From NCBI GenBank assembly GCA_963713795.1, contig CAVQNC010000010.1:103966-167965 (forward strand): 64,000 nucleotides of DNA, read 5' to 3'. The position numbers and the translations under genes are program-made. Each line of letters starts with the position of its first letter. The first letter of the stretch is position 1. Source of the stretch: an uncultured Chloroflexia bacterium. Lineage in GTDB: Bacteria > Chloroflexota > Limnocylindria > Limnocylindrales > CSP1-4. Below the pieces are notes generated by a model. The model ran no database searches and had not been told where the DNA came from. It saw only the letters and a program-made list of their open reading frames with translations. Of the stretch, positions 30,128-56,359 are shown one piece after another.

Positions 30128-30836
30128 AACACCTCTCTCGGGCGAGCGAGTCGTGCCTGCCGGCGCGGGCGCGGCATCTGCCGGCGGTACCGCAGGCACG
30201 TCCGGGCGGTTGTCGCTGCCCATAGGGATCATCTCGAGGCCGCGCCTGGCGAGCCACGAACTGATGAACTCAGCCAGGGCCCGGTCGTCGTTGGCCAGAA
30301 CGGTGCGTGCCCTGTGTCGTGGGCGGCGAAGCCGCTCGTCCGTGCGACCACCTCACCTTTCAGCCGAGGAGCCGGCTCGTTGACCTGCCTTGAATGGTGC
30401 TTGCCCCACCCCATTACGTCAACCCCGGAGTCGGCCGGCGGACCGCGCAGCCGAGACGTGGCTCTCCCTAGTCGAGCGGGAGTCACATCCGGCCGCGAGG
30501 CCGGCAGGGGCGCGCTTTCGCGGGGCGGCTGTGCCCCAAGTGTTTTGAGAATGATTTGAGATTTGCGGCGGGTTGTCGGGAATAGAGTTCGGTCACAAGC
30601 GCCCGGGCCCACGCACTGGTAGGAGAAGTGGGTCACCCCAGGAGAGGAGGTATGGTCGCGGTACCTGGTAGCGGCGTGCGCCTGGCAGGCCGCACTCGGG
30701 TACTCGCACGGGGACCGGCTTCGGCATAGCTGGGTTCGCGACGCCGAGATTTACCAAACCATCGAATTCCGAATCCCATCTGGCGGATCCGCTACCCCGG
30801 TGGATTTCGCCGATGGGGCGCCAGGGAGATTTGAGA

Positions 30837-31601
30837 ATGGTCGAGAAAATGGTTGCCGAGATCTTCGGCACGGCGATTCTGGTCCTTCTGGGCGACGGCG
30901 TTGTAGCGGGTGTCCTGCTCTCGAAGTCGAAGGCCCAGAACTCGGGCTGGATCGTCATAACCATGGCATGGGCATTCGCCGTCTTCATGGGCGTGTGCGT
31001 GGCCGGACCGCTCAGCGGCGCCCACCTTAACCCGGCCGTGACGATCGGCCTTGCCACCTACGGGTCGCTCCAGTCGGGCGCCGGCATCACCTGGGACCAG
31101 GTCCCGCCGTACATTGCCGGTGAGATGATCGGTGCCATGATCGGCGCGATCCTTGTGGTCATCCACTACTGGGATCACTTCAAGGCCACCGAGGACAAGG
31201 GCCTCAAGCTGGCGGTCTTCAGCACGGCCCCGAACATCCGCAACCTGCCGCTCAACCTGGTCTCGGAGATCATCGGCACCTTCGTGCTCGTCTTCGTGAT
31301 CCTCTGCTTCGGCCAGCCCGGTTCCAAGGCCCCGGCGACCATGGGCGCGCTGCCCGTCGCCCTGCTGGTCCTGGTCATCGGCCTCTCGCTCGGCGGTACG
31401 ACCGGATATGCGATCAACCCCGCCCGCGACCTCGGCCCGCGCATCATCCACGCCATCCTGCCAATTCCTGGCAAGGGCGGTTCGGACTGGGAGTACTCGT
31501 GGGTTCCCGTCGTCGGTCCGCTGATCGGCGGCGCAATCGCGGCCATCGTCTACTACGCGGCCTTCACCCAGTTCATCGTCCTCAAGATTCCGGTTTCGTA
31601 A
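30837..31601 (+). CDS. glpF: Glycerol uptake facilitator (MIP/aquaporin family)
   Basis: Two NPA boxes (HLNPAVTIG and AINPARDLGPR); six TM helices; ATG 8 nt after AGGGAG. Confidence 0.9.
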   Translation: MVEKMVAEIFGTAILVLLGDGVVAGVLLSKSKAQNSGWIVITMAWAFAVFMGVCVAGPLSGAHLNPAVTIGLATYGSLQSGAGITWDQVPPYIAGEMIGAMIGAILVVIHYWDHFKATEDKGLKLAVFSTAPNIRNLPLNLVSEIIGTFVLVFVILCFGQPGSKAPATMGALPVALLVLVIGLSLGGTTGYAINPARDLGPRIIHAILPIPGKGGSDWEYSWVPVVGPLIGGAIAAIVYYAAFTQFIVLKIPVS

Positions 31602-31716
31602 GCGGTCGTTTCAAGTTGAGCCGCCGGTTCGAGGCAACTCGGGCCGGCGGCTCGCCCTGCCGAACCGACCTGAACCGACCTGAACTGTCGGATCCAGGAG
31701 TCGCGGAGGAAGTCGA

Positions 31717-32715
31717 ATGAAGAAGCTCATCAACGCGCCGGACCGCGTCGTGGACGAGGCGCTGGCCGGCATGGCAGCGGCTCACCCGGATCTGATCCGG
31801 GTCGAGGAGCCAAACATCATCGTCCGAAAGGATGCCCCCAAGCGCGGCAAGGTCGGCATCATCTCCGGCGGCGGGTCGGGCCACGAACCCATGCACGGCG
31901 GCTTTGTCGGCATGGGCATGCTCGATGCCGCCTGCCCGGGCGCTGTGTTCACGTCACCGGTTCCGGATCAGATGCAGGCCGCCACCAGGGCGGTCAACGG
32001 CGGCGCCGGTGTGCTGCACATCGTCAAGAACTACACGGGCGATATCATGAACTTCGACCTCGCGGCTCAACTGACCGAGGCCGAAGGGATCCCGGTGAAG
32101 GCGGTCGTCATCGCCGACGACGTAGCCGTAAAGGACTCGCTCTACACCGCTGGCCGGCGCGGTGTCGGCGGGACGGTGCTCGCCGAGAAGATCGTCGGCG
32201 GCGCGGCCGAGGCCGGCGCCGATCTGGACAAGGTGACGGCCTTGTGCCAGAGGGTCCAGGACAATGTCCGTTCCATGGGCATGGCCCTGACCAGTTGCAC
32301 CGTCCCGGCGGCGGGCAAGCCCACCTTCGAGCTCGCCGACGACGAGATGGAGATCGGCATCGGCATTCACGGCGAGCCTGGCCGGACCAGGATGAAGCTC
32401 GCCCCAGCGGACGACATCGTCGAAATGCTGATGGTGCCGATCCTCGAAGACCTTCCGTTCAAGTCGGGTGACAAGGTGCTCGCCTTCGTCAACGGCATGG
32501 GCGGAACGCCGCTTATCGAGTTGTACGTCGTGTACAACGCGGTCAACAAGATCCTCAAGGGCCGTGGGATCACGATCGCACGGAACCTCGTCGGGAGTTA
32601 CATCACGTCCCTGGAGATGGCCGGCTGCTCTATCAGCTTGCTCAGGCTCGACGACGAGATGACCCGCTTCTGGGATGCCCCGGTCCATACGCCGGGTCTT
32701 CGCTGGGGCGTGTGA
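31717..32715 (+). CDS. dhaK: Dihydroxyacetone kinase subunit DhaK (copy 1)
   Basis: GGGSGHEP motif and DhaK fold; ATG after GGAGGAAG. Confidence 0.9.
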
Positions 32716-33365
32716 CGTCGATGGACCAAACCGGCCGGTTGTCGTTCGATGATGTCCGTGGCTGGATCCGGCGCTTCGCGGCGCAGATCGTCGCCAACAA
32801 GAAGTACCTGACCGAGCTCGACTCGGCCATCGGCGACGCCGACCACGGCATCAACATGGATCGCGGCTTCCAGGCTGCGATTCCGAAGCTAGATGCCCTT
32901 ACGGGCGAGGATCCCGGCGCAGCCTGCAAGCTCGTCGGGTCGACGCTCATCTCCACGGTCGGCGGAGCCGGCGGGCCCCTCTACGGCTCGCTCTTCCTCC
33001 AGTTCGGCATCGCCTTGTCCGGCCACGACACGATCAGCCTGAACGAATGGCTGACCGGATTCGACCTGGGCATCGCTGCGATCCAGCGGCTTGGAAAGGC
33101 CGAGGCCGGCGACAAAACGATGCTCGATGCCCTCATGCCCGCCCGCGACGCCCTCAAACAGGCTCTCGCCGATGGAAAGAGTCCCAGAGAGGCTCTCCTC
33201 GGCGCGGCCTCGGCGGCCGAGGCGGGGATGATAGGCACCATCCCGATCGTGGCCCGCAGGGGCCGGGCGAGCTACCTGGGAGAGCGCAGCGCGGGCCATC
33301 AGGACCCGGGCGCGACCTCCTCGTACATGCTCGTCAAAGCCGCAGCGGACGAATGGGCGGCCTAG
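32712..33365 (+). CDS. dhaL: Dihydroxyacetone kinase subunit DhaL (copy 1)
   Basis: DGDHGINM ADP-binding motif; 4-nt overlap with dhaK. Confidence 0.85.
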
Positions 33366-33375
33366 ATCCGCGGTA

Positions 33376-34905
33376 GTGGATTCCGGTTTATCGAAAGAGG
33401 TGACTAGATTGGCTCAGTATGTAGGCGCCCTGGACCAGGGGACTACAAGCACCCGCTTCATGATCTTCGATCACTCCGGCGGCGTCGTCGGGATCGATCA
33501 GAAGGAGCATGAGCAGATCTACCCGAAGCCGGGTTGGGTCGAGCACGATCCGCTGGAGATCTGGACGCGCAGCGTCGAGGTCATCCGCGGCGCCCTGGCC
33601 AAGGCCGGCATCAAGGCCTCCGACCTGGCGGCGGTCGGCATCACCAACCAGCGCGAGACCACGGTGGTCTGGGATCGCAAGACGGGCAAGCCCGTCTACA
33701 ACGCGATCGTCTGGCAGGACACCCGGACCGACGTGATCATCAACGAGTTCGCCAAGGACGGCGGCCAGGATCGGCTCCGCGCCAAGGTCGGCCTGCCTCT
33801 GGCGACCTACTTCTCCGGCCCGAAGATCAAGTGGATCCTCGACAACGTCGCGGGTGCCCGTGCCAAGGCCGACGCCGGAGACCTCCTCTTCGGCAACATC
33901 GACACCTGGTGCATCTGGAACCTGACCGGCGGCGTCAGCGGCGGCGTGCACGTCACGGACGTGAGCAACGCCAGCCGCACGATGCTGATGAACCTCGAGA
34001 CCCTGGACTGGGATCCCGAGATTCTCAAGCTCATGGGCATCCCGCGGTCCATGCTGCCGGCCATCAAGGCCTCCAGCGAGGTCTACGGCAAGGGCGTCGG
34101 CGACCTCGCCGGCGTTCCGGTGGCCGGTGACCTGGGTGACCAGCAGGCGGCCCTCTTCGGCCAGACGTGCTTCTCCGCCGGCGAGGCGAAGAACACCTAC
34201 GGCACGGGCTGCTTCATGCTCCTGAACACGGGCACCAAGGCGGTCCCGTCCAAGAGCGGCCTGCTGACCACGCTCGGATACAAGATCGGCGACCAGCCCG
34301 CGGTCTACGCCCTTGAAGGCTCGATCGCGATCACCGGCGCCCTGGTCCAGTGGCTGCGCGACAACCTTGGCATGATCAAGACCTCGCCCGAGATCGAAGA
34401 GCTTGCCAAGACGGTCGACGACAATGGCGGCGTGTACTTCGTGCCGGCCTTCTCCGGCCTGTTCGCGCCGTACTGGAAGAGCGATGCGCGCGGCGTCATC
34501 GCCGGATTGACTCGCTACGTCAACAAGGGCCACATCGCCCGAGCAGTGCTCGAGGCGACGGCCTGGCAGACCCGCGAAGTGCTCGACGCGATGAACTCCG
34601 ACTCCGGCGTTCCGCTAACCGCACTCAAGGTCGACGGCGGCATGGTCTTCAACGACCTGCTCATGCAGTTCCAGGCCGACGTCCTGGGCGTGCCGGTCAT
34701 CCGGCCGAAGGTCGCAGAGACGACCGCCCTGGGCGCCGCCTACGCTGCCGGCCTCGCGGTCGGCTTCTGGAAGGCCGTCGAGGACCTGCGGGCGAACTGG
34801 CAGAAGGATCACGAGTGGAAGCCCAAGATGGATGCCACCACTCGTGAGAAGGACCTCAAGCTCTGGAAGAAGGCCGTGACCCGGACCTTCGACTGGGTCG
34901 AGTAG
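33376..34905 (+). CDS. glpK: Glycerol kinase
   Basis: [17 protein letters not shown]-terminal motif, FGGY-family length. The true start may be the TTG at about 33409 (LAQYVGAL). Confidence 0.9.
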
Positions 34906-34917
34906 GGTCTCCACCAA

Positions 34918-34946
34918 TCCGGCGGCCGGCTTGCCCGGCCGCCGGA
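34918..34946 (+). terminator. Perfect 12-bp stem hairpin (TCCGGCGGCCGG-cttgc-CCGGCCGCCGGA) between glpK and the glpA-like gene
   Basis: Read directly from the sequence. No U-tract; may act as a terminator/attenuator or RNA processing site. Confidence 0.4.
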
Positions 34947-34979
34947 TAACAATGTTCGAACATCGCATCTGGCAGAACA

Positions 34980-36167
34980 ATGGATAGACAGTCAGGCGCA
35001 CCAAGGGTCGTCATCATCGGCGGCGGTGGCACGGGGGGAGCCCTCGCCCACGATCTGACTCTGCGCGGGGTCCGCGTGACCCTCGTCGAGCGCGGCGAAA
35101 TCACTTCGGGGACGACGGGCCGGCACCACGGCCTGCTCCACTGCGGCGCCCGGTACGCGGTCAAGGACCGCGAGTCCGCCGTTGAGTGCATTGAAGAGAA
35201 CACCATCCTGCGGAGGATCGCGCCGGGCTCGTTCGAGCTCAACGACGGGCTCTTCGTCGCGGTCACCGATGCCGAGGCGGATTACGAGAAGGTCTTCTTC
35301 GAGTCGTGCCAGGCCGCCGAGATTCCCGTCAGGAGAGTGGACCGGGCCGGGGCGCTGCGCCTCGAGCCCAGGCTGAACCCGGAGCTCCGGTGCGCCGTCC
35401 AGGTCCCCGACGGCACCATGGACGCGATGCGCATGCCGCTCCGGTTCTTCGCCACCGCCAAGCGCAACGGCGCCGATATCCGGCCGTTCAGCGAGGTCGT
35501 CGGGCTGACCATGACGGACGCGGCGTCGCCGCGCGCGGTCACCGGGGTGGCCGTGAAGGACCTCACGTCCGGCCGCACGTACGAGATCGGCGCGGACCTG
35601 GTGGTCAACGCGGGCGGGCCGTGGGCGGGCAAGGTGGCCGGAATGGCCGGTGTGGACGTGCCGATCCAGCCCTCGCCGGGGATCCTGGTCGCGGTCCGCG
35701 GCCGCTACTGCAACATGGTCGTCAACCGGCTCCACGCCTCCGGCGACGGCGACATCGTGGTGCCCCAGCGCGAGCTCTCAGTGATCGGAACGAGCTCGTG
35801 GGTCACCGACGATCCGGACCACCTGACCGTCCCATCCGACCACGTGGAGATGATGTTCCGCGAGGGATCGATGATGATCCCGTCGATCCGCACGGCCGAG
35901 ATTCGGGCGACCTGGTCCGCCGCCCGGCCGCTCATCGGCGAGCGCGGCGCCTCCACCGGCCGCGAGCTTTCGCGCACTTTCAAATGCTTCGACCACGCGG
36001 CCGACGACGGCGTCGAGGGCTTCGTGACCATCTCGGGAGGCAAGGCGACGACGCTGCGGGCGATGGCGGAGGCGACGGCCAACGTCGTGTGCCGCAAGCT
36101 CGGCGTCGACCGGCCGTGCATGACCCGCGAGGTCGTGCTGCTGCCCCACACGGAGTACTACGCATGA
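34980..36167 (+). CDS. glpA: Glycerol-3-phosphate dehydrogenase flavoprotein, GlpA-type but truncated (about 395 aa, lacks the C-terminal BFD-like domain)
   Basis: N-terminus VVIIGGGGTGGALAHDLTLRGVRVTLVERGEITSGTTGRHHGLLHCGARYAVKDRESAVECIEEN is collinear with the E. coli GlpA N-terminus as recalled. Confidence 0.8.
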   Translation: MDRQSGAPRVVIIGGGGTGGALAHDLTLRGVRVTLVERGEITSGTTGRHHGLLHCGARYAVKDRESAVECIEENTILRRIAPGSFELNDGLFVAVTDAEADYEKVFFESCQAAEIPVRRVDRAGALRLEPRLNPELRCAVQVPDGTMDAMRMPLRFFATAKRNGADIRPFSEVVGLTMTDAASPRAVTGVAVKDLTSGRTYEIGADLVVNAGGPWAGKVAGMAGVDVPIQPSPGILVAVRGRYCNMVVNRLHASGDGDIVVPQRELSVIGTSSWVTDDPDHLTVPSDHVEMMFREGSMMIPSIRTAEIRATWSAARPLIGERGASTGRELSRTFKCFDHAADDGVEGFVTISGGKATTLRAMAEATANVVCRKLGVDRPCMTREVVLLPHTEYYA

Positions 36168-36955
36168 GCGCCCAGGAGTCTCCGGTGACCGAAGGGGCTC
36201 AGGCCCCCGTCGATACCCACGCCACCTCGGGAACCGGCCGCCACGTCCGCTTCCGCGTCTCCCGTTTCAAGCAGGGCGACCAGCAGCCGCACCTCCAGGA
36301 CTACGACGTGGAGATTGCGCCGGCGACCACGGTCCTGGACGCCCTGACGGCGATCCGCCGCGACCAGGACCCGACGCTGCTCCTGCGCCATTCCTGCTTC
36401 CACGCGTCCTGCGGCACCTGCGGCATGCGCGTCAACGACAAGGAAGAGCTGGCCTGCGTCACGGCCGTCAGCGACCTCGACTGCGACACGGTCAAGGTGG
36501 AGCCGATCGCGAACCAGCGACTCGTTTCGGACCTGGTCACGGACATGGTCGACTTCTACGATCGGTTCCGGGCGATCGGCCGGCCGCTCATCCGCCAGAG
36601 TGAGGTCTACCCGGACTCGGAGGTCGCGCCGGGAGTCGAGGAGCACCGCCGCTACGAGAGCTGCATCGAATGCGGGCTCTGCCTGTCGGCCTGCCCGATC
36701 GTAGCCAGCGACGGCCGCTACCTCGGCCCGGCGGCGCTCGCGGCGGCCCAGCGTACCGTCGCCGAGCCGCGCGGTGGCGACAGCTTCTCCGTCCTGCGCC
36801 TGACCGACGACGCCCAGGCGGCCTGGCGCTGCCACCTGTCGTTCGAGTGCTCGGAGGCCTGCCCGTCCAACGTGGATCCGGCCGGCGCCATCATGTTCAT
36901 CCGCCGCAAGCTGGCAGGCCAGCGCGTCAACTCGATCTTCGGGAGGCGGTCATGA
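36164..36955 (+). CDS. Succinate dehydrogenase/fumarate reductase-type iron-sulfur subunit (SdhB-like: 2Fe-2S plus two 4Fe-4S-type motifs)
   Basis: ATGA overlap with the glpA stop. CFHASCGTCGMRVN...C plant-ferredoxin motif; CIECGLCLSACP; CHLSFECSEACP. The 5' 286 codons of track ORF 35306..36955 are a frame artefact. Confidence 0.75.
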   Translation: MSAQESPVTEGAQAPVDTHATSGTGRHVRFRVSRFKQGDQQPHLQDYDVEIAPATTVLDALTAIRRDQDPTLLLRHSCFHASCGTCGMRVNDKEELACVTAVSDLDCDTVKVEPIANQRLVSDLVTDMVDFYDRFRAIGRPLIRQSEVYPDSEVAPGVEEHRRYESCIECGLCLSACPIVASDGRYLGPAALAAAQRTVAEPRGGDSFSVLRLTDDAQAAWRCHLSFECSEACPSNVDPAGAIMFIRRKLAGQRVNSIFGRRS

Positions 36956-37353
36956 CCGTAAGGGAAGATAGGGCAAGCCCCCGGCGCCGCGGCGTCTACG
37001 GCTGGGTCGACCCGCGGGGTCGCCGGCTGGGTCACTGGGCCTTCATCCTCAACCGCCTGACCGGTCTGGGCATCCTTCTGTACCTGGGCCTGCATCTGGT
37101 CGTGCTGTCGATGCTGGCCACCGGCCCGAATGCCTGGGACAACTTCGTCTCCCTCGCCCTGACGCCCGTCTTCCTGTCCCTGGACGTGATCCTGATCTTC
37201 GGCCTGCTGCTCCACGGGCTCAACGGCATCCGCGTGACGCTTGTCGGCTTCGGCCTGGTGGTCGATCGCCAGAAGGCCCTCTTCGTGTCGCTGATGGTGA
37301 TAGGAGCCATCATCCTGGTCGTGGCGTCGCTCCACATTTTCGAGGTGGGGTAA
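36952..37353 (+). CDS. SdhC-like membrane anchor/cytochrome b subunit
   Basis: ATGA overlap with the FeS gene; 133 aa, three TM helices with His residues (HWAF, LHLV, LLHGLNG). Confidence 0.65.
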   Translation: MTVREDRASPRRRGVYGWVDPRGRRLGHWAFILNRLTGLGILLYLGLHLVVLSMLATGPNAWDNFVSLALTPVFLSLDVILIFGLLLHGLNGIRVTLVGFGLVVDRQKALFVSLMVIGAIILVVASLHIFEVG

Positions 37354-37356
37354 GCG

Positions 37357-37791
37357 ATGTCTGAGCCAATCTCCGGCCACTCCAAAGCGACCGATCAGCC
37401 GGTCGATCACGATGTCGAGCGCTCGACCTGGACGCCTTCGAACGAGTCCGGGAAGCCGGCCTGGGGCTGGATCCTGCAGGCGGTCACCGGCGTGCTGGTG
37501 CTGTTCCTTCTGACCTTCCACATGATCGCCAACCATTTCATGGTGACCAAGGGCCTGCGCGACGCCGCCTCCGTGGCCCAGTGGTTCTCGAACCCGCTCG
37601 TCGTCGTCCTGGAGGTAACCTTTCTGGTGATGGTGACGTGGCACGGGCTGCTCGGCCTGCGCGCGATCATCTTCGACTTCGGCTTCAGCCCGAAGACGGA
37701 GCGCCGGATTACCTGGACCCTGACAGTGGTTGGCACAGTGGCGGTCGTCTATGGAATCTGGCTTACGTCGGTGATCGTCTCCCGGGGTTGA
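37357..37791 (+). CDS. SdhD-like hydrophobic membrane anchor subunit
   Basis: 144 aa, three TM helices (FHMIANHFMV, WHGLLGLRAI); follows the SdhC-like gene after 3 nt. Confidence 0.6.
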   Translation: MSEPISGHSKATDQPVDHDVERSTWTPSNESGKPAWGWILQAVTGVLVLFLLTFHMIANHFMVTKGLRDAASVAQWFSNPLVVVLEVTFLVMVTWHGLLGLRAIIFDFGFSPKTERRITWTLTVVGTVAVVYGIWLTSVIVSRG

Positions 37792-37812
37792 TCCTGCGAC
37801 TGGAGGCGTGGC

Positions 37813-40425
37813 GTGGCGGATGCGACCGGGCCGCTGGTAGGGATAGTCGTCGTCTCACACTCGGCGCGGATCGCCGAGGGTGTCGTCGAGCTGGCCCGGC
37901 AGATGGCCGGCCCGGACGTGCCTCTCGTTGCCGCCGGAGGCATGGCCGACGGCGCCATCGGAACCGATGCGGTTCTCATAGCGGAGGCGATCGCCCGGGC
38001 CGACGTTGGTGGCGGCGTGCTCGTTCTGGCCGACCTCGGCAGCGCGGTCCTGAGCACGAAACTGGCCCTGGACATGGCCGATCCGGAACTGGCCGCCCGG
38101 ACTCGCCTGAGCAACGGGCCGATCGTCGAAGGCGCGGTCGTGGCCGCGGTCCGAGCCAGGGGCGGCGCGACGGTCGACGAGGTTCTGCGCGAGGCGGAGG
38201 CCGCTGCCTCGGTGGTCAAGGACTCTGGTGACGAGGCTGCCGACGTCTTCGGTGCGGCCGGCCCCGGGCCGAGCCTGGCGGCCGGAGCGGCCGGGACGAG
38301 CGGCGGCGTGGCCGGTGCGGCCGGCGGGCCCAGCACGTTCACCCTCGAGGTCTCGAACCCGTCCGGCCTGCATGCCCGGCCGGCGGCGGAGTTCGTCGCC
38401 ACCGCCGCACGGTTCCGATCCGCGATCCGGCTCGAGAACCTGACTCGGGGCACGTCACCGGCCGACGCCAGGAGCCCGACGGCGATCATGTCGAGCGGAG
38501 TGGCCCAGGGCCACGCGATCCGCGTGTCGGCTGAGGGAGAGGACCAGGACGCGGCGCTTGCGGCGCTCCTGTCGCTCGCCGCTGGCGGCTTCGGCGAGGG
38601 CAAGGCGGCCGCCACCCGACCCGGGCCGGCCGCGGCTCGGCCGGCGGCCGAATTGCCGCTCCTGGCGCCCCGCCCGCGCCTGGCCGGGGCCATCGCCGGG
38701 ACGCCGGGCGCAGCCGGCGTGGCCGTCGGGCCGGTGTGGGTCTACGCCTCGCGGCCGCCGTCCGATGCCGCCGCTCACGGGGCCGGGGCGACTTACGATC
38801 CCGGCGCGGCAGTCCGTTCGGCGGCCGCCGAAGCCACCGCCCAGCTCAACGCGCTGGCGGCACGGGTGCGGCGGCATGGTCGAGACGAGGACGCCGGCAT
38901 CTTCCGAGCCCAGGCCATGATTGCCTCCGACCCGCAGCTCCTGGACGATGCCGTGGCGCGGGCGGCCGCGGGCGAGGACCCGGGCAGGGCCGTGGAGTCG
39001 GCCGCGGCGATGGCCGCGGAACGCATGGAGGCCCTGCCGGACGCGCTCCTGGCGGCCCGTGGGGCCGACTTCCGCGACGTGGGGGCCAGGATCGCCCGGA
39101 TCGTTCGAGGTGAGTCGCTGACCCTGCCGGCCGTGCCTTCCATCGCGGTCGCCGAGGACCTGCCGCCCTCCGTCGCGGAGGAGCTGCCGGAAGATCTCCT
39201 GCTCGGAGTGGCGATCCAGGGCGGCTCGGCCACGGCGCACGTCGTAATCCTGTCCCGCGGCCGGGGGATCCCGGCCGTAGTGGCGGTGCCCGGACTCCTC
39301 GAAGCGGCGGCGAAGGCGTCGGCCATCGCCATCGACGGCGAGTCGGGCGAAGTGGTCCTCGATCCGGACGCGGCCGCGCTGGCCGAGCTGGCGGCTCGCG
39401 CCGAGGCCTTGGCCGAGCGCCGCCGCGCCGCGGCCGCGCTTCGCGGCGACAAGGGAGCCACTGCCGACGGGCAGCCCGTTGCGCTGCTGGCGAACATCGG
39501 CGGCCCTGATGATGCCGGCCGCGCCATCGAAGCCGGAGCCGAGGGCGTGGGCCTGTTTCGAACCGAGTTCCTGTTCATGAAGCGCCGGACGGCTCCGACC
39601 GAGGACGACCAGGTCGAGCCGTATCGGCGCGTCTTCGAAGCCTTCGGGCGCGATCGCCCGGTCGTCGTCCGCCTGGCGGACATCGGCGGCGACAAGGACC
39701 TGCCTTACCTGGGCTTGCCGCACGAGGAGAACCCGTTCCTCGGAGTCCGGGCGATCCGCCTGGCCGAGGGTTCGCGCGAGCTGCTCGCCGCCCAGCTGCG
39801 GGCGATCTGGCGGGCCGCCGGGCTGGCCGGCGTGGTGCCGCACGTCATGGCGCCGATGGTCTCCACGCTGGAGGACGCCCGTCTCCTGGTCGAGCTGCGC
39901 GACGAAGCCCGGGCGGTGGTGGCGGCCGGGGGCGCGCCCCTGCCCGAGCGCATGGTCACCGGAATCATGGTCGAGGTCCCGTCCGCGGCGATCCTGGCTC
40001 CGGAGCTCGCGCGGCTGGTCGATTTCTTCTCGATCGGCACGAACGACCTGACCCAGTACACGCTGGCGGCGGATCGCTCGAACCCGGCTCTGGCCCACTT
40101 CCAGGATGCCCTCCATCCCGCTGTTCTACGCCTCATCGCCGGCGTGGTCGCCGGGGCCGACGAGGCCGGCATCCCGGTCGCGGTCTGCGGGGAACTGGCC
40201 GGCGATCCGATCGGGGCCCTCGTGCTGGTCGGCCTGGGTGTCGACGAACTCTCCGCGGACGCCGGCTCGCTCGATGACGTGCGGGCGGCGCTCGCGGGCG
40301 TGACGCGCGCTCAGCTGGCCGATCTTGCGCAGGACGCCCTCAAGGCGGCCGATGCCGCGGCGGTCAGGGCCATGGCCCGCGAGCTCCTGCGGCCGCTCGC
40401 AGCGGGGCCCGGGCGCACGCCGTGA
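37813..40425 (+). CDS. dhaM: Multiphosphoryl transfer protein: DhaM-type EIIA(Man)-like domain, HPr domain and full Enzyme I (PEP-protein phosphotransferase)
   Basis: N-terminus VGIVVVSHSARIAEGVVELARQM matches the DhaM N-terminus. HPr GLHARPAAEFV. EI phospho-His region GGSATAHVVILSRGRGIPAVV and PEP-utilizing signature FFSIGTNDLTQYTLA. 870 aa. Confidence 0.85.
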   Translation: MADATGPLVGIVVVSHSARIAEGVVELARQMAGPDVPLVAAGGMADGAIGTDAVLIAEAIARADVGGGVLVLADLGSAVLSTKLALDMADPELAARTRLSNGPIVEGAVVAAVRARGGATVDEVLREAEAAASVVKDSGDEAADVFGAAGPGPSLAAGAAGTSGGVAGAAGGPSTFTLEVSNPSGLHARPAAEFVATAARFRSAIRLENLTRGTSPADARSPTAIMSSGVAQGHAIRVSAEGEDQDAALAALLSLAAGGFGEGKAAATRPGPAAARPAAELPLLAPRPRLAGAIAGTPGAAGVAVGPVWVYASRPPSDAAAHGAGATYDPGAAVRSAAAEATAQLNALAARVRRHGRDEDAGIFRAQAMIASDPQLLDDAVARAAAGEDPGRAVESAAAMAAERMEALPDALLAARGADFRDVGARIARIVRGESLTLPAVPSIAVAEDLPPSVAEELPEDLLLGVAIQGGSATAHVVILSRGRGIPAVVAVPGLLEAAAKASAIAIDGESGEVVLDPDAAALAELAARAEALAERRRAAAALRGDKGATADGQPVALLANIGGPDDAGRAIEAGAEGVGLFRTEFLFMKRRTAPTEDDQVEPYRRVFEAFGRDRPVVVRLADIGGDKDLPYLGLPHEENPFLGVRAIRLAEGSRELLAAQLRAIWRAAGLAGVVPHVMAPMVSTLEDARLLVELRDEARAVVAAGGAPLPERMVTGIMVEVPSAAILAPELARLVDFFSIGTNDLTQYTLAADRSNPALAHFQDALHPAVLRLIAGVVAGADEAGIPVAVCGELAGDPIGALVLVGLGVDELSADAGSLDDVRAALAGVTRAQLADLAQDALKAADAAAVRAMARELLRPLAAGPGRTP

Positions 40426-41432
40426 GAATGGCGAGCCTGGGCAGGTCCGGCCTCCCCGTCAGCGAGATCGGGCTGGGCCTGGCCGCGATCGGCCGGCCGG
40501 GCTATATCAACCTCGGACGCGACCGCGACCTCGGCGCCGATCGCAGCGTCGAGGTCATGCGGAGCAGAGCCCACCACGTGCTCGACGCCGCCTACGCCGG
40601 CGGCGTGCGTTACTTCGACGCCGCGCGCTCGTACGGCCTGGCCGAGGACTTCCTGGCCTCGTGGCTGGACGCACGCGCCCTCGGGCCCGCCGACGTGACC
40701 GTGGGCTCCAAGTGGGGCTACCGCTACACGGCCGACTGGCAGGTCGGGGCGAGCGTCAACGAGATCAAGGACCACTCCGTCGCGAACCTGCGGCGCCAGG
40801 CGGCCGAGAGCCGCGGGCTGCTGGGAGACCGGCTGCGCCTCTACCAGATCCACTCCGCCACTCTCGAGAGCGGCGTGCTCGACGACGCCGAGGTGCTGGC
40901 CGAGCTGAGCTCGCTGGCCGGGGCCGGCCTGGCGGTCGGGCTGTCGGTGAGCGGTCCGCGGCAGTCGGACGTGATCCGTCGCGCGCTCGAGGTCCGGGTC
41001 GACGGCCGCCCGCTCTTTGCCTCCGTCCAGGCGACCTGGAACCTGCTCGAGCCGTCGGCCGGACCCGCGCTGGCCGAGGCCAGGGAGGCGGGCTGGGGAG
41101 TGATCGTCAAGGAAGCGCTGGCGAACGGCCGCCTGGCCACGCCGGCGGCGCCGGCGGCCCTCGCGGCGCCGGGTTCGCCGGGCCGGCCCGCTCCGCTCGA
41201 GAACGTGGCCGGGCGCCTCCGCTGCGCCGCCGACGCCGTGTCCATCGCCGCCGCGCTGGCTCAGCCGTGGTCCGACGTAGTCCTGTCGGGAGCGGTCAGC
41301 CCTGAACAGCTCACCAGCAACCTTGCCGCGGTCGACGTGCGGATCTCGCCCGACGACCTGGCCGAACTCGGGTCCATGGCCGAGCCGCCGGCATCGTACT
41401 GGGCGACGCGAGCCTCGCTGGCCTGGGCCTGA
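40422..41432 (+). CDS. Aldo/keto reductase
   Basis: 336 aa; AKR (alpha/beta)8 barrel features; ATGA overlap with the dhaM fusion gene. Confidence 0.7.
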   Translation: MRMASLGRSGLPVSEIGLGLAAIGRPGYINLGRDRDLGADRSVEVMRSRAHHVLDAAYAGGVRYFDAARSYGLAEDFLASWLDARALGPADVTVGSKWGYRYTADWQVGASVNEIKDHSVANLRRQAAESRGLLGDRLRLYQIHSATLESGVLDDAEVLAELSSLAGAGLAVGLSVSGPRQSDVIRRALEVRVDGRPLFASVQATWNLLEPSAGPALAEAREAGWGVIVKEALANGRLATPAAPAALAAPGSPGRPAPLENVAGRLRCAADAVSIAAALAQPWSDVVLSGAVSPEQLTSNLAAVDVRISPDDLAELGSMAEPPASYWATRASLAWA

Positions 41433-41841: not shown

Positions 41842-42906
41842 TTGGAAGAGAACGCCGGCCAGAGCCTGTACGAATTCCTGGCGCGCATCGCCCATCGTTA
41901 CTACGTCGACGATCGGACGCAGGAGGAGATCGCGCGCGAATTCGCTCTGTCGCGGGCGAAGGTCCAGCGGCTCCTCGTCCAGGCGCGCGAGGCGGGCGTG
42001 GTCGAGATCAGGATCCAGGCCCCGCCGTGGCTCCACCTGGAGCTCGAGGACGAGTTCGCCGCCGAGTTCCGTCTGACCGACGTGATCGTCAGCACGTCGC
42101 GGCCGGACCCGCAATCGCAGCGCGAGGCGGTGGCCCGGAGCGCGGCCCAGTACCTTGAGCGGCGCCTCGGCAAAGGAGCGATCGTGGCGGTGGGCCACGG
42201 GCGCGACACCGGCGAGGTGCCGCGTTTCTTCCGGCCGGGCCGCCGGCTCGATTGCACGTTCGTCAGCGCCATGGGCGGGTCGCCGCGGGTCGATGCCCCA
42301 ACCAACCCCAACGAGATCTGCCGCGCCCTGGCGCAACAGTGCGGCGGCCGGGCCGAGAGTCTCTACGCCCCGGCCTACGTCGAGAGCGAGGAGATGCGCG
42401 ATGGGCTGCTCCAGCAGGAGGCGATCTCGCACACCCTGCGGCTTGCCGCACAGGCGAGCGTCGCCCTCGTCGGCATTGGCGGCACGAACGAGAACTGCAC
42501 GATGGTCCGCAGCGGCTGTCTCTCCACCGACGAGATAGGCCGGCTCGTGGGCCAGGGGGCCGTCGGCGACGTGCTCGGGAACTACATGGATGTCGATGGT
42601 CGGTTGATCGCGGCGCCCCACCGGGACCGGCTGGTGGCCCTGTCCGTAGACGAGCTGCGCCGTATCGAGACCGTCGTCGCGGTCGTGAGCGAGGCCGAGA
42701 AGCCGCTCGCGATCCTCGGCGTCCTGCGAGCGGGAGTCATCGATGTCCTGATCGTCGACGAAGCCAACGCCAGGGCCGTGCTGGACCTGGTGCGCCGCGG
42801 CCGTGATTCGGGCGACCCGGCCGGCAGCGAAGAGGTTCCGGCGGGCAAGAAGGCGACAGCCCGGGCTGCCCGGGACAAAGGAGTGATCGGCTCGACGAAG
42901 GATTGA
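41842..42906 (+). CDS. SorC/DeoR-family sugar-binding transcriptional regulator
   Basis: TTG start. N-terminal HTH LYEFLARIAHRYYVDDRTQEEIAREFALSRAKVQRLL, then a sugar-phosphate-binding CggR/SorC-type domain. Confidence 0.75.
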   Translation: MEENAGQSLYEFLARIAHRYYVDDRTQEEIAREFALSRAKVQRLLVQAREAGVVEIRIQAPPWLHLELEDEFAAEFRLTDVIVSTSRPDPQSQREAVARSAAQYLERRLGKGAIVAVGHGRDTGEVPRFFRPGRRLDCTFVSAMGGSPRVDAPTNPNEICRALAQQCGGRAESLYAPAYVESEEMRDGLLQQEAISHTLRLAAQASVALVGIGGTNENCTMVRSGCLSTDEIGRLVGQGAVGDVLGNYMDVDGRLIAAPHRDRLVALSVDELRRIETVVAVVSEAEKPLAILGVLRAGVIDVLIVDEANARAVLDLVRRGRDSGDPAGSEEVPAGKKATARAARDKGVIGSTKD

Positions 42907-43016
42907 ACAGCCGCGGAGCGGTGGCGTAACCAGTTCGGCCGCGAGCCCGGAGGGCTCTGGCCGATGGCCGGAGTAGGCGTAAGCCGGACAGCGAAGCGTC
43001 CCAAGGAGGTGCTGGA

Positions 43017-43871
43017 GTGCCGATCGTATCGACAAAAGAGATCCTCAACAGGGCATTTGCCGAACGCTACGGGGTCGCGGCGATCAACGTCATCAACGAC
43101 CTGACGATGGAGGCCGTCCTGGCCGCGGCGGAGGAACTGAAAGCCCCCGTCATCCTCCAGACCTCGGTCAAGCACGTGAAGATGACCGGGCTGGACGCCA
43201 TGTACGCGATGTGGGTGGAGTACACCAAGCACGTCTCCGTCCCGGTCGCCCTCCACCTGGACCATTGCCCGGAGCGCGACGTCATCAGCGCCTGCCTCGC
43301 GAAGGGCTGGAACTCGGTCCTCTTCGACGCCAGCAAGCTTTCGGTCGAGGAGAACAAGCGCCAGTGCGCCGAGGTCGTCGCCGAGGCCCGCCGCTACGGC
43401 GCCGACGTCGAGGGCGAGATCGAGGGCTTCAAGCGGACCGAGGAGATGACCGGCGACGAGGCCGAGCACGTCCAGAGCCTCGAGACCGTCATCGACTTCG
43501 TCCACGCCACCGGCGTCGACGTCTTCGCGCCGGCGATCGGCAACGCCCACGGCATGTACAAGACGACGCCGCACCTCGACAGCCAGCGGGTAACCGACAT
43601 CGTCGAGGCAACCGGGATTCCGGTGGCGCTCCACGGCGGCACCGGCATGACCCCGGAGCAGTTCAGCGACCTGATCTCCCGCGGTTGCGCCAAAGTCAAC
43701 ATCTCCACCGCGCTCAAGATCGCCTTCATGAAGTCGGGCTACGACTTCATGACCGAACACCCGGGCGACTACGACCCGCCCAAGATCTTCACCGCCCAGC
43801 GCGCCGCGGTGATGGAAATGGCCAAGTACCACATCCGGCTGTTCGGCAGCGAAGGCAAGGCCTGGAAATGA
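43017..43871 (+). CDS. Class II ketose-bisphosphate aldolase (FbaA/GatY/KbaY family)
   Basis: GTG after AAGGAGG. Collinear with E. coli GatY as recalled ([30 protein letters not shown]). Confidence 0.85.
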
Positions 43872-44641
43872 ACGCGCTGGTCTTCGACTGCGACGGCGTC
43901 CTGGCCGACACCGAGCGGTACGGACACCTGCCGTCGTTCAACCAGACGTTCCGCGAGTTCGGACTCCCTCTCGAGTGGTCGGAGGAGGAGTACGGGCGAA
44001 AGCTGCTCATCGGCGGCGGCAAGGAGCGCATGTCGAGCGAACTGACGCCCGACTTCGTTCGGGCCAACCGCCTGCCCTCCGACCCCGAAGCTCTGGCGGC
44101 AGAGGTCGCCAAGTGGCACAAGCGCAAGACTGCCCTCTATACGGAGATGGTCGCCGCCGGCAAGCTGCCGCCGCGGCCGGGCATCCGGCGGGTGATCTCC
44201 GACGCGCAGGACGCGGGCTGGAAGCTGGCGGTGGCGTCCACGTCAGCCGAGGCGTCGGTCCACGCCATCCTCGAGTTCGCGGTCGGCAAGGAGCGCGCCG
44301 ACCTCTTCGACGTCTTCCTGGCCGGCGACTGCGTTCCCAAGAAGAAGCCGGCTCCGGACATCTATCTCCTCGCGCTCGAGAAGCTCGGCGTCGACCCCGC
44401 CGAGGTGCTCGTCGTGGAGGACTCTCGCAACGGGCTCGAGGCGGCCTACGCCGCGGGCCTGCGCTGCCTGGTAACGGTCAACGGCTACACCGAGAAGGAG
44501 GACTTCAGCGAGGCAATCCTCGTGGTTTCGTCCCTTGGTGATCCGGATGGGGAGCAGACGACAGTCATCGCCAACCGCTCGGCCGCGCGGCCGGGTGCGT
44601 ACGTGACCCTCGCCGACCTGGAGGCCTGCCTCGCCCCGTAA
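43868..44641 (+). CDS. HAD-IA family hydrolase (phosphatase/phosphomutase-like)
   Basis: DxD motif FDCDGVLAD at the N-terminus; ATGA overlap with the aldolase gene. The 5' part of track ORF 43211..44641 is a frame artefact. Confidence 0.75.
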
Positions 44642-44683
44642 CTCCGCCCGGCAACCCACCGAAGCAAGGAGAAGGAGGTCCAT

Positions 44684-45355
44684 ATGGCTAAGGCGTCGTT
44701 CGACGACGTCGACCTCGTGCTCAAGACGATGGCCACCACGATCGTCGACAACGCGGAGTACTTCGCCCAACTCGACTCGATCGTCGGGGACGGCGACTTC
44801 GGCTTCTCGTTGCGCAACGGATTCGAGGTCGTGGTCGCCGACTACGACACGTTCGACAAGTCGAGCGTGGGAGCCGTGCTCAAGAAGATCGGCCTCACCC
44901 TCGCCGGCAAGGTCGGCGGAGTTTCCGGCCCCATCTGGGGTACGGCTTTCCTCCGGGCCGGCGTTGCGGCCGGCGATCGGACCGAACTGGCGCCCGAAGA
45001 CCTGATCGCGATGTTGCGTGCCGCGATCACGGGAATCATGGCCCGCGGCGGCGCATCGCTGGGCGAGAAGACCCTGCTCGACGCCCTTGTTCCGGCAACC
45101 AATTCCATGGAGGCGGCGATCGGCGACCCGGCGATGCAAGGCGACCACGGCGTCAAGGCGATCCAGAGTGCCGCTGACGTGGCGGTCAAGGCGGCGGAAG
45201 ACACCAAGTCCATGCTGGCGATGCGCGGTCGGGCCGCGTACACCGGCGAGCGGAGCATCGGCTCCGTCGATGCCGGCGCGACGGCGATCGGCGTAATCCT
45301 CCAGGCCATCGCGTCGGCGTGGCGCGAAAAGTACGGAAAGGAAGCACAGGCGTGA
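44684..45355 (+). CDS. dhaL: Dihydroxyacetone kinase subunit DhaL (copy 2, divergent)
   Basis: DhaL fold with variant nucleotide motif DGDFGFSL; 223 aa. Confidence 0.75.
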   Translation: MAKASFDDVDLVLKTMATTIVDNAEYFAQLDSIVGDGDFGFSLRNGFEVVVADYDTFDKSSVGAVLKKIGLTLAGKVGGVSGPIWGTAFLRAGVAAGDRTELAPEDLIAMLRAAITGIMARGGASLGEKTLLDALVPATNSMEAAIGDPAMQGDHGVKAIQSAADVAVKAAEDTKSMLAMRGRAAYTGERSIGSVDAGATAIGVILQAIASAWREKYGKEAQA

Positions 45356-46347
45356 GGAAGTTCCTGAACGACCCGAAGAAGTTCGTGCCCGAGTTCCTCG
45401 AGGGCATCGCGCTCGCGAGCGGCGGCACGCTCAAGTACGAGCCGAAGTACAACCTGATCTACCGGGCCGACATGCCCAAGAAGGATCGGGTCTCGATCAT
45501 CCAGGGTTCCGGGTCCGGCCACGAGCCGGCGCACACCATGATCGTCGGCCCCGGCATGCTCGACGCGGCATGCCCGGGCGACGTCTTCGCCGGCCCGCCC
45601 GTTGAGTTCGTCACCGAGACGTCCAAGCTGATGGACACCCCGGCCGGCGTGCTCTACATCGTCAACAACTACACGGGCGACCGCACCGCCTGGGAGATGG
45701 CCAAGGAGCTCTGCGAGGCCGAGGGCCAGAAGATCGGCTATCTGCTCGTCAACGACGACGTGGCGGTCAAGGACTCCACCTGGACGATCGGCCGGCGCGG
45801 CGTGGCCGGCAACTTCTTCGTGATCAAGGCCGTCGGCGCCAAGGCCGACAAGGGCGGCTCGCTCGAGGAGTGCGTCAAGGTCGGCGAGAAGGTCATCAGC
45901 CGCGTCCGGACGATGGGTATCGCCCTGTCGTCCTGCACGCCGCCGGTCCGCGGCACGCCGCTCTTCGAGATCGCCGACGGCGAGATGGAAGTCGGCATCG
46001 GCATCCACGGCGAGCCGGGTCGCGAGCGGCGCAAGATGGGCACGGCCGACGAGATCGTCGACGTGCTCCTCGGCGCCATCGTCCCCGACCTGCCGTTCAA
46101 GGCAGGCGACGAGGTCGCGCTGATGGTCAACGGCCTCGGCGGGACCCCGATCAGCGAGCTCTACCTGCTCTACGGCATTGCCCACAAGAAGCTGGCCGCG
46201 CAGGGCATCAAGGTCTTCCGCAGCTACGTCGGCGAGTACTGCACCTCGCTCGAGATGGCGGGCGCGCACATCTCGATGCTCAAGGTGGACGACGAGCTCA
46301 AGGAACTGCTCCTCGCCCCGGCGGAGGTCGCCGTCCGGGTCTTCTAG
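45352..46347 (+). CDS. dhaK: Dihydroxyacetone/ketose kinase subunit DhaK (copy 2)
   Basis: GTG 45352 overlapping the dhaL2 stop (GTGA), preceded by GGAAAGGAAG; GSGSGHEP motif. Confidence 0.8.
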   Translation: MRKFLNDPKKFVPEFLEGIALASGGTLKYEPKYNLIYRADMPKKDRVSIIQGSGSGHEPAHTMIVGPGMLDAACPGDVFAGPPVEFVTETSKLMDTPAGVLYIVNNYTGDRTAWEMAKELCEAEGQKIGYLLVNDDVAVKDSTWTIGRRGVAGNFFVIKAVGAKADKGGSLEECVKVGEKVISRVRTMGIALSSCTPPVRGTPLFEIADGEMEVGIGIHGEPGRERRKMGTADEIVDVLLGAIVPDLPFKAGDEVALMVNGLGGTPISELYLLYGIAHKKLAAQGIKVFRSYVGEYCTSLEMAGAHISMLKVDDELKELLLAPAEVAVRVF

Positions 46348-46584: not shown

Positions 46585-48306
<1,722 letters not shown>

Positions 48307-56206: not shown

Positions 56207-56359
56207 TCGTCCGTTCCCTTTCCATGACTGGACCTGGTACCGCACGAAACAGTCGGTTGCCGCCGCTCCGCGTGAGTCGATGGCAATCGGCTCAACTCCG
56301 CCCCGCCAGATCATATCCAGGCTTGACCGCACGCGAACGCTCGGCCATCGTGAGACCCC

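Follow-up and report, generated by a model that had tools for sequence, protein, structure and literature searches.

Multiphosphoryl transfer proteins (MTPs) that join IIAMan, HPr and Enzyme I (EI) modules in one chain, encoded beside dihydroxyacetone (DHA) kinase genes, have already been described by Comas et al. 2008 (PMC2405797), with published examples from Vibrio parahaemolyticus, Photobacterium profundum and Desulfovibrio vulgaris (YP_010202). The same study regards the E. coli DhaM as derived, its EI domain having been lost, treats the FruB-type proteins as a separate MTP group, and describes dha clusters in Mesorhizobium loti and Bradyrhizobium japonicum with separate ptsH and ptsI genes dedicated to the dhaKL operon (PMC2405797). 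PtsT of Mycobacterium smegmatis (Titgemeyer et al. 2007, as cited in PMC13099321) is said in the citing text to have the composition seen here, and its function is given as unknown in PMC13099321.

We analysed a window of 64 kb from a Chloroflexota (Limnocylindria-like) metagenome-assembled genome (MAG), which encodes a protein agreeing with the MTPs of Comas et al. in module set, module order, association with dhaK and dhaL, and predicted PEP-to-DhaL relay. With L047, a representative from Vibrio, the alignment covers residues 8-820, and dhaK-dhaL lies immediately upstream there. However, sequence identity to this published type is just 35-45%, and the window gene differs in its setting, a larger glycerol operon (glpF...glpK-G3P dehydrogenase) in which five genes separate it from dhaKL, and in its Chloroflexota host. 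Actinomycetota homologues (L038 and L072) also have dhaK-dhaL directly upstream; the actinobacterial group is about 42-45% identical to the window protein.

FruB-type MTPs (IIAFru-HPr-EI; Pseudomonas, Xanthomonas, Rhodobacter capsulatus) likewise combine a sugar-specific EIIA with HPr and a full EI into a private phosphoryl chain, but their EIIA belongs to the fructose class and their client is a membrane EIIBC transporter, whereas the window MTP is of the mannose/DhaM class with a soluble kinase as its expected client. Lactococcus lactis DhaM shares the chemistry and the EIIA-Man-type donor domain, although in L. lactis and the rhizobia the modules are separate polypeptides and here they are fused. 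Positions 2-471 of 473 in the E. coli DhaM (YcgC) model NF008478 align to aa 9-515 of the window protein, spanning EIIA-Man, HPr and the phosphohistidine-bearing EI N-terminal domain, and the MTP can thus be described as DhaM plus the missing EI C-domain, since the PEP-binding C-terminal domain (aa 544-830) is present here and absent from E. coli DhaM. The E. coli protein is reported to need the cellular EI and HPr (Gutknecht et al. 2001, as cited in PMC13099321 and PMC3863723). Assignment of the window protein to the E. coli type was rejected, given that NF008478 scored 217.9 against an equivalog cut-off of 520 and that beyond aa 515, where the alignment ends, the protein goes on into the PEP-binding domain.

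Domain architecture and active-site residues

The initial annotation had read a DhaM-type N-terminus, an HPr domain and a full Enzyme I in a single 870-aa polypeptide, and this was borne out by an intact open reading frame (GTG start, no internal stop in the translation), Pfam and NCBIfam. The gene and its parts are as follows.

37802..37806, + strand: ribosome-binding site GGAGG, 6 nt 5' of the MTP GTG start, read from the sequence
37813..40425, + strand: MTP gene (EIIA-Man/DhaM - HPr - Enzyme I), 870 aa; ORF list and translation, Pfam, NCBIfam
37840..38184, + strand: EIIA-Man/DhaM-type domain, aa 10-124; PF03610 (E = 7.5e-26, 91 bits), TIGR02364
38185..38337, + strand: linker 1, aa 125-175, Ala/Gly/Pro/Ser-rich; composition, alignment
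38338..38577, + strand: HPr domain, aa 176-255; PF00381 (E = 3e-24, 85.3 bits), TIGR01003, tblastn
38578..38697, + strand: linker 2, aa 256-295, Ala/Pro/Gly-rich; composition
38698..39348, + strand: Enzyme I N-terminal half; PF05524, PF00391, alignment to E. coli EI 2hwg
39442..40302, + strand: Enzyme I C-terminal PEP-binding/dimerisation domain, aa 544-830; PEP-utilizers_C, PF02896 (E = 1.1e-95)

When the Pfam annotation proposed for this protein was carried out, all five domains scored far above their gathering scores. At the N-terminus, the DhaM subtype is indicated by the dha_pts model TIGR02364 (127.6 against a cut-off of 98.25) and by matches of the L. lactis DhaM structures 3ct6/3cr3 to aa 9-129, together with an active-site His and the presence of dhaK1 and dhaL1 in the same operon. 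The HPr assignment rests on TIGR01003 (61.6 against 47.9), an E. coli HPr tblastn match at 38350-38547, and an HPr fold carrying the G-x-H-x-R-P motif as GLHARPA. Both motifs cited initially were found in the translation, GLHARPA at aa 185-191 and FFSIGTNDLTQYTLA at aa 738-752. Enzyme I as a whole occupies aa 296-830 with all three Pfam parts present, namely the HPr-binding helical subdomain (aa 296-416; PEP-utilisers_N, PF05524, E = 1.1e-13), the mobile phosphohistidine domain (aa 442-512; PEP-utilizers, PF00391, E = 4.3e-12) and the C-terminal domain listed above. This three-part layout is accompanied by a score above the curated cut-off for the family (TIGR01417 PTS_I_fam, 435.8 bits against 341.7, model positions 43-562 of 565), and aa 293-859 are matched by the PtsP model. 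The protein belongs to the IIAMan MTPs, as it has the IIAMan, HPr and EI modules in this order and a genomic link to DHA-kinase genes. The modules are separated by stretches in which Ala, Gly, Pro and Ser make up 65% (aa 125-176) and 66% (aa 256-296) of residues; linker 1 varies in length and aligns poorly among homologues.

The claim of a complete Enzyme I depended on its catalytic residues being retained, which we assessed by alignment of the MTP with 12 full-length homologues of 42-79% identity (alignment A1) and by a residue-by-residue map to E. coli EI. All of the residues were kept. The three phosphohistidines, His16 of the EIIA-Man domain (codon 37858-37860), His187 of HPr in GLHARPA (codon 38371-38373) and His476 of EI (codon 39238-39240), are invariant in the 12 homologues, as are Asp74 of the EIIA-Man domain, R189 of GLHARPA and Cys792 (codon 40186-40188). 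His476 and Cys792 correspond to His189 and Cys502, catalytic residues of E. coli EI. The residues R583, R620, K628 and R646 map to E. coli R296, R332, K340 and R358, and E721, N744, D745 and R755 map to E431, N454, D455 and R465, the PEP/Mg2+ ligands; all eight are invariant in A1.

Because the source is a metagenome-assembled genome, and because relatives carry split or decayed versions (L005 has an ApbA-like insertion, and L084 retains an EIIA remnant), one could suppose that a frameshift or misassembly joined neighbouring dhaM, ptsH and ptsI genes, or that the EI part is a decaying relic. We consider this extremely improbable. The same unbroken frame recurs across about 8 phyla, in dozens of assemblies and isolates that are independent of one another, the identical protein is present on three contigs (two of which were read) and has a 100% identical public copy (P0001) in NCBI and ENA, all catalytic residues are invariant, and the gene's GC3 of 0.87 is a typical coding value for the window. 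An artefactual fusion is effectively refuted by the recurrence of the frame across phyla, the identical copies and the invariant catalytic residues.

Presumed operon and distribution of the fusion

The MTP gene is the ninth gene of a presumed ten-gene operon, ordered glpF, dhaK1, dhaL1, glpK, glpA-like, sdhB-like, sdhC-like, sdhD-like, MTP and aldo-keto reductase, whose relevant members are:

30813..41432, + strand: presumed ten-gene operon; same strand, gaps of -4 to 115 nt, families assigned by profile
31717-32715, + strand: dhaK1; TIGR02363 494.5 against 406, with GSGHEP, YTGD and GIHGEPG motifs
32712-33365, + strand: dhaL1; TIGR02365 224.3 against 138, with a DxxxGDxDxG motif

A scan for promoters and terminators across 29.5-47 kb gave counts no higher than in shuffled sequence, so the operon structure is argued solely from gene spacing. 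Two related loci (L003 and L013) share the ten-gene order.

The absence of other PTS components from the window, as first proposed, held up: among about 55 predicted genes scanned, which cover the window but for a few short ORFs and gaps, there was no EIIB/EIIC, second EIIA-Man or other PTS protein. In tblastn searches of the window, neither E. coli HPr nor the MTP itself matched anything besides the MTP reading frame.

The same three-module architecture was present in 66 of the best 120 protein matches. At the level of genomic loci, 22 of the best 80 contain all three modules and span about 8 phyla (Chloroflexota, Cyanobacteriota, Caldisericota, Verrucomicrobiota, Pseudomonadota, Spirochaetota, Dormiibacterota and Actinomycetota). 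Such fusions carry the IMG product names 'multiphosphoryl transfer protein' or 'phosphoenolpyruvate-protein phosphotransferase/dihydroxyacetone kinase phosphotransfer subunit'. Among the matches listed, the nearest named relatives of the MTP and of DhaK2, the kinase subunit of a second pair discussed below, come from Candidatus Limnocylindrales/Limnocylindria MAGs.

The window MTP is an ordinary further example of a widespread, already described fusion type. Its implied unusualness finds no support given a published type, standard IMG names and occurrence in many phyla, and the notion of a canonical DhaM carrying only an EI N-terminal fragment does not stand either, the E. coli protein being one lineage's derived form (PMC2405797). 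The example illustrates that E. coli DhaM is a reduced form, and adds a Chloroflexota/Limnocylindria member to a known class, with little import beyond correct annotation: 'multiphosphoryl transfer protein (DhaM-HPr-EI)' describes the protein best, as against the bare 'PEP-protein phosphotransferase' of some MAG records.

Proposed phosphoryl relay to DhaK1 and DhaL1

What we observe here is the domain architecture, a full set of conserved catalytic residues and a conserved dhaKL linkage; by analogy with the E. coli and L. lactis systems we infer that the protein transfers phosphoryl groups. Since the domains are intact and all EI catalytic residues are present, a relay from PEP through EI-His, HPr-His and EIIA-His to DhaL-ADP within one polypeptide is the natural prediction. 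It is highly probable that the MTP is functional and supplies a PTS-type dihydroxyacetone kinase with phosphoryl groups from PEP, and the self-contained PEP-to-DhaL relay first suggested for this protein is the best reading for DhaK1/DhaL1.

In the proposed sequence of events, the C-terminal EI domain would bind PEP and Mg2+ (through E721 and D745, C792 donating the proton) and autophosphorylate His476 of the mobile domain, from which the phosphoryl group would pass to His187 of the built-in HPr and on to His16 of the N-terminal DhaM/EIIA-Man domain. His16 would then phosphorylate ADP held by DhaL1, and DhaL1 would transfer the group to DHA covalently bound at His218 (GIHGEPG) of DhaK1, yielding DHAP. 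The two Ala/Gly/Pro-rich linkers may allow the domains to swing, and, as both the EI and the EIIA-Man domains dimerise, the phosphoryl group could move inside one chain or from one chain to its partner. As the MTP is presumably co-transcribed with glpF, dhaKL, glpK and the glycerol-3-phosphate dehydrogenase gene, the operon would funnel both glycerol and DHA to DHAP.

In weighing this donor function we counted in its favour the five Pfam domains and three NCBIfam models above curated cut-offs and, on the other side, the five genes that separate the MTP gene from dhaKL and those relatives whose EI and HPr lie away from dha genes (L083) or are unfused (L084). The latter raise the alternative that the MTP is not dedicated to DHA kinase, acting as a general and possibly the only EI/HPr that feeds other PTS or regulatory targets, or engaging in cross-talk with a separate ptsI/ptsH pair. 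One close relative of 64% identity (L083) has an HPr-EI fusion alone with no dha genes nearby, and another (L084) keeps intact, separate HPr and EI genes next to a 54-aa EIIA remnant after the apparent loss of dhaKL and most of EIIA; since both carry HPr/EI apart from dha genes, the EI/HPr module may have other partners. We nevertheless regard a general role as unlikely, given that the 64-kb window lacks any EIIB/EIIC or further PTS protein, that the full fusion lies downstream of dhaK/dhaL in 18 of the 22 related loci drawn from the best 80, and that the N-terminal domain fits the DhaM-specific model and not just generic EIIA-Man.

Within the searchable literature we found no biochemical assay of any full IIAMan-HPr-EI fusion, including PEP-dependent transfer to DhaL without separate EI or HPr. 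Reconstitution of such a full-length protein is apparently unreported, and any member of the class, the window MTP included, could serve.

The second DhaKL pair

Two DhaKL pairs were confirmed in the window, dhaK1/dhaL1 at 31717-33365 and dhaL2/dhaK2 at 44684-46347, the latter within a second cassette.

41842..46347, + strand: second cassette, comprising a SorC/DeoR-type regulator, class II ketose-bisphosphate aldolase, HAD phosphatase, dhaL2 and dhaK2; family profiles

The second pair looks to be of the PTS type from its sequence. DhaL2 passes the PTS-type model TIGR02365 (178 against 138.3), and, measured against the ATP-dependent C. freundii kinase, DhaK2 and DhaL2 reach 154 and 42 bits, far below their scores with the E. 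coli and L. lactis subunits, which depend on the PTS (271/262 and 128 bits). Catalytic motifs are kept in both proteins, save for a Phe in place of His in the GDxDHG motif of DhaL2.

The cassette is a possible second client of the MTP, and the initial annotation held that this one protein must serve both DhaKL pairs. We found this obligation to be an inference that the data do not support, and a single MTP acting as obligatory donor to DhaL2/DhaK2 of the aldolase/phosphatase cassette as well as to DhaK1/DhaL1 is a tentative proposition that we lean against. In its favour, in addition to the PTS-type scores and intact motifs of pair 2, the MTP carries the sole EIIA-Man domain found in the window and the cassette begins downstream of the MTP gene at a distance of just 1.4 kb. 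A stronger version, in which the MTP is the sole PTS protein of this Limnocylindria-like bacterium, has no sugar-transport role, and powers DhaK1/DhaL1 together with a clade-wide DhaL2/DhaK2 whose real substrate may not be DHA, seems to us quite improbable; if true, one PTS relay would drive two different soluble kinases.

Several observations argue against obligatory service to both pairs. The cassette appears as a separate transcription unit, set off from the ten-gene operon by a 409-nt gap and carrying its own regulator. DhaK2 falls below the DhaK equivalog cut-off (384.1 against 406.25), and the His that DhaL2 lacks is present at the GDxDHG position in both E. coli DhaL and DhaL1. This five-gene set is also found in four other Limnocylindrales contexts (L085, L086, L087/L088 and L089) with no DhaM or MTP within 10 kb of the cassette. 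Within the clade, conservation of pair 2 also extends far more broadly than that of the MTP: DhaK2 relatives show 86-97% identity in all clusters listed (at least 120), whereas about six MTP relatives reach at least 70% identity among the matches listed. Because relatives of DhaK2 are many and close and close relatives of the MTP few, pair 2 looks core to the clade and the MTP operon patchy.

Architecture and catalytic residues of the fusion protein

The multiphosphoryl transfer protein (MTP) is encoded by an uninterrupted frame of 870 codons at 37813-40425 (+), as seen in both the ORF list and the translation, which starts with GTG 6 nt after a GGAGG at 37802-37806 and has a GC3 of 0.87, like the remaining coding regions of the window (69% G+C overall). 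Pfam assigned five domains, every one scoring far over its gathering score:

MTP residues 10-124, EIIA-man, E = 7.5e-26
MTP residues 176-255, PTS-HPr, E = 3e-24
MTP residues 296-416, PEP-utilisers_N, E = 1.1e-13
MTP residues 442-512, PEP-utilizers, E = 4.3e-12
MTP residues 544-830, PEP-utilizers_C, E = 1.1e-95

NCBIfam models for the Enzyme I (EI) family (TIGR01417, 435.8 bits; cut-off 341.7), the DhaM-specific donor domain (TIGR02364, 127.6; cut-off 98.25) and the HPr family (TIGR01003, 61.6; cut-off 47.9) also matched. The initial annotation had described a DhaM N-terminus, HPr and full EI in one 870-aa chain, and the exact ORF, the five domains and the three models, together with recovery of both motifs it cited, establish that this observation is correct, well above chance. 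The E. coli DhaM model NF008478 aligned over profile positions 2-471 of 473, covering MTP residues 9-515 only, and its score of 217.9 lies well below the cut-off of 520. Confinement of this match to residues 9-515, taken with the domain and model scores, indicates that at the sequence level MTP corresponds to an E. coli-like DhaM joined to the PEP-binding half of EI.

For EI we took the catalytic residue identities to be those established for the E. coli enzyme. Per-residue mapping by HMMER alignment to E. coli EI (PDB 2hwg) revealed identity at all ten positions (E. coli His189, R296, R332, K340, R358, E431, N454, D455, R465 and Cys502 correspond to MTP H476, R583, R620, K628, R646, E721, N744, D745, R755 and C792, respectively), and none of these ten varies in an alignment of 12 full-length homologues that are 42-79% identical to MTP. 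Equally invariant are the EIIA-Man/DhaM residues His16 and Asp74 and, within the HPr motif GLHARPA, His187 and Arg189. The EI module is complete and shows purifying selection; the loss of catalytic residues considered in the initial annotation therefore does not hold. Both inter-domain segments (residues 125-176 and 256-296) are ~65% Ala/Gly/Pro/Ser and differ in length among the homologues, as would be expected of flexible PTS linkers.

Distribution of the fusion and standing of truncated DhaM

A protein identical to MTP (P0001) is present in NCBI and ENA, where contig_499 of ERZ25039473 carries it in the gene order of the window. EIIA-man, HPr and EI share a single chain in 66 of the 120 best database matches, among which the closest named fusions come from Candidatus Limnocylindrales MAGs; IMG calls such fusions 'multiphosphoryl transfer protein' or 'phosphoenolpyruvate-protein phosphotransferase/dihydroxyacetone kinase phosphotransfer subunit'. 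When one genome per species was scanned, all three modules were present in 22 of the 80 best loci (counting L005, whose EIIA part is split from HPr-EI), spanning Chloroflexota (Anaerolineae, Chloroflexia, Ktedonobacteraceae, Limnocylindria), Cyanobacteriota (Nostoc, Chroococcidiopsis, Lyngbya, Leptolyngbyaceae), Pseudomonadota (Vibrio, Cellvibrionaceae), Actinomycetota (Pseudonocardia, Dermatophilaceae), Caldisericota, Verrucomicrobiota, Spirochaetota and Dormiibacterota. When searched by tblastn with the window's operon proteins, 18 of these 22 loci have dhaK/dhaL upstream of the fusion gene, and in two of the other four the upstream sequence extends just 2-3 kb. The order glpF-dhaK-dhaL-glpK-glpA...MTP recurs (tblastn) in Anaerolineae (L003, L013), in further MAGs of Chloroflexota (L006, L014), and in Limnocylindria (L023) and Dormiibacterota (L026, L030).

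Comas, Gonzalez-Candelas and Zuniga (2008; PMC2405797) sorted multiphosphoryl transfer proteins into three groups; their examples of IIAMan-HPr-EI proteins linked to DHA-kinase genes include Vibrio parahaemolyticus, Photobacterium profundum and Desulfovibrio vulgaris, and they view E. coli DhaM as derived by loss of the EI domain. Another paper (PMC13099321), citing 2007 work on Mycobacterium smegmatis PtsT, a protein of like composition, drew a contrast with E. coli DhaM. The EI domain of E. coli DhaM is truncated, whereas MTP holds a complete EI with its PEP-binding C-terminal domain. The initial annotation treated the truncated protein as canonical; both papers and the wide occurrence of full fusions argue against this, and E. 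coli-type DhaM is therefore a derived, lineage-specific form. The full IIAMan-HPr-EI fusion is the published, widespread form and probably the ancestral one, and MTP is an ordinary member of a previously described class already named by annotation pipelines.

HPr-EI also occurs apart from dha genes. In locus L083 (10001-12100) a 699-aa HPr-EI fusion, 64% identical to the matching part of MTP, adjoins a catalase gene, and neither EIIA nor dha genes lie within 10 kb, which suggests that in this clade the module also exists independently of DHA kinase. Locus L084 (8183-11749) lacks dhaK and dhaL and contains a 432-aa FGGY_N+CCG chimera, a 54-aa EIIA-man remnant, intact separate genes for HPr (94 aa) and EI (582 aa; 71% identical to the MTP EI), and then a class-I tRNA-synthetase gene (Pfam tRNA-synt_1c), as at 46585-48306 downstream of MTP; it looks like a decayed version of the dha/MTP locus. 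Given these two loci, the HPr-EI module may have roles beyond DhaKL. In L005 (9303-13758), from an uncultured Chloroflexia MAG, the EI part is 67% identical to MTP, an EIIA-like N-terminus precedes a ketopantoate-reductase-like (ApbA) region within one ORF, and HPr-EI forms a separate 739-aa ORF; upstream lie canonical GlpA, GlpB and GlpC and then one 225-aa protein containing two anchor segments of the Sdh_cyt type. Either a genuine rearrangement or an error in assembling the MAG could account for this.

The proposed phosphorelay and the second DhaKL pair

MTP is encoded by the ninth gene of a presumed operon of ten co-directional genes separated by -4 to 115 nt:

30813-31601 (+), glpF
31717-32715 (+), dhaK1
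32712-33365 (+), dhaL1
33376-34905 (+), glpK
34980-36167 (+), GlpA-like flavoprotein
36164-36955 (+), SdhB-like iron-sulfur protein
36952-37353 (+), Sdh_cyt membrane anchor 1
37357-37791 (+), Sdh_cyt membrane anchor 2
37813-40425 (+), MTP
40422-41432 (+), aldo-keto reductase

A consensus promoter and terminator scan gave counts no better than shuffled sequence. DhaK1 and DhaL1 exceed their equivalog cut-offs and keep their catalytic motifs. The initial annotation had stated that the window contains no other PTS components; in agreement, domain scans of ~55 predicted genes across it found no other PTS families, and tblastn with E. coli HPr and with MTP matched only the MTP ORF.

In PTS-dependent DHA kinases phosphate passes from PEP through EI, HPr and DhaM to ADP on DhaL and then to DHA on DhaK (PMC3863723). 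Observed here are the order of the domains, every phospho-acceptor and PEP/Mg2+ residue and the conserved dhaKL linkage, and from homology we infer the phosphotransfer: PEP would phosphorylate His476 of the EI module, the phosphoryl group would pass to His187 of HPr, His16 of the DhaM module and the ADP cofactor of DhaL1, and it would end on DHA held by DhaK1, with the relay transfers either intramolecular or across a dimer. With GlpF, GlpK and glycerol-3-phosphate dehydrogenase also encoded, the operon would turn glycerol and DHA into DHAP. We consider this relay and route very probable, and the self-contained phosphorelay predicted earlier is reasonable for this first pair.

The aldo-keto reductase start overlaps the MTP stop, and 55% identical homologues lie near dha/MTP loci in a Dormiibacterota MAG (L030, 16225-17184) and a Pseudonocardia MAG (L072, 7264-8193). 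This hints that the genes are functionally linked, for instance in glycerol/DHA or methylglyoxal reduction.

Beyond a 409-nt gap follows a second unit:

41842-46347 (+), five-gene cassette: SorC/DeoR-type regulator, class II ketose-bisphosphate aldolase, HAD phosphatase, dhaL2, dhaK2

Its L-K order reverses the usual one, and in DhaL2 Phe replaces the His of the GDxDHG motif. The initial annotation held that MTP must serve both pairs. By sequence the second pair does resemble the PTS-dependent type, as DhaL2 passes TIGR02365, catalytic motifs are intact, and both subunits score much higher against their E. coli and L. lactis counterparts than against the ATP-dependent kinase of C. freundii; however, the pair sits under separate regulation in a cassette that recurs unchanged in four other Limnocylindrales contexts (L085-L089) with no DhaM/MTP within 10 kb. 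All 120 listed DhaK2 clusters are 86-97% identical to DhaK2, whereas only ~6 MTP relatives reach at least 70% identity among the matches listed. A necessary role for MTP as donor to both pairs is thus somewhat doubtful. Recurrence and tight DhaK2 conservation against few MTP relatives make the cassette look core to the clade and the MTP operon accessory, and many relatives probably run the second pair without MTP. That a sole, transporter-less PTS relay drives two different soluble kinases is unlikely, and would be only moderately interesting if true.

Dehydrogenase genes and a further reading frame

The genes at 34980-37791 (+) encode a glycerol-3-phosphate dehydrogenase with a fumarate-reductase-like build, also found in L003 (7263-9970) and L013 (6626-9408). 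The GlpA-type flavoprotein is truncated (395 aa; TIGR03377 positions 2-380 of 530) and lacks the BFD [2Fe-2S] tail; next, with overlaps of 4 nt, come an SdhB/FrdB-family iron-sulfur protein (TIGR00384, 190.9 > 88) and a pair of Sdh_cyt membrane anchors. Thermofilum-related archaea are the only organisms for which a GlpA-SdhBCD arrangement has been described, and bacterial glpA is said to be always accompanied by both glpB and glpC (PMC11962113); here the arrangement is found in Chloroflexota bacteria, whereas Dormiibacterota relatives (L026) have a canonical GlpABC at this position of the operon. The public gene call for the flavoprotein starts at 35337 (276 aa; L001 7525-8355), removing the N-terminal FAD-binding segment (34980-35336), and is probably wrong because in the 395-aa ORF that begins at 34980 the DAO match starts at residue 9.

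Elsewhere, in a 750-aa ORF at 55064-57316 (-), the aspartate-ammonia ligase (AsnA) domain is confined to residues 411-659, and the first 410 residues match no Pfam family; the N-terminal part probably reflects over-extension of the ORF in this high-GC sequence and not a true extension of the protein.
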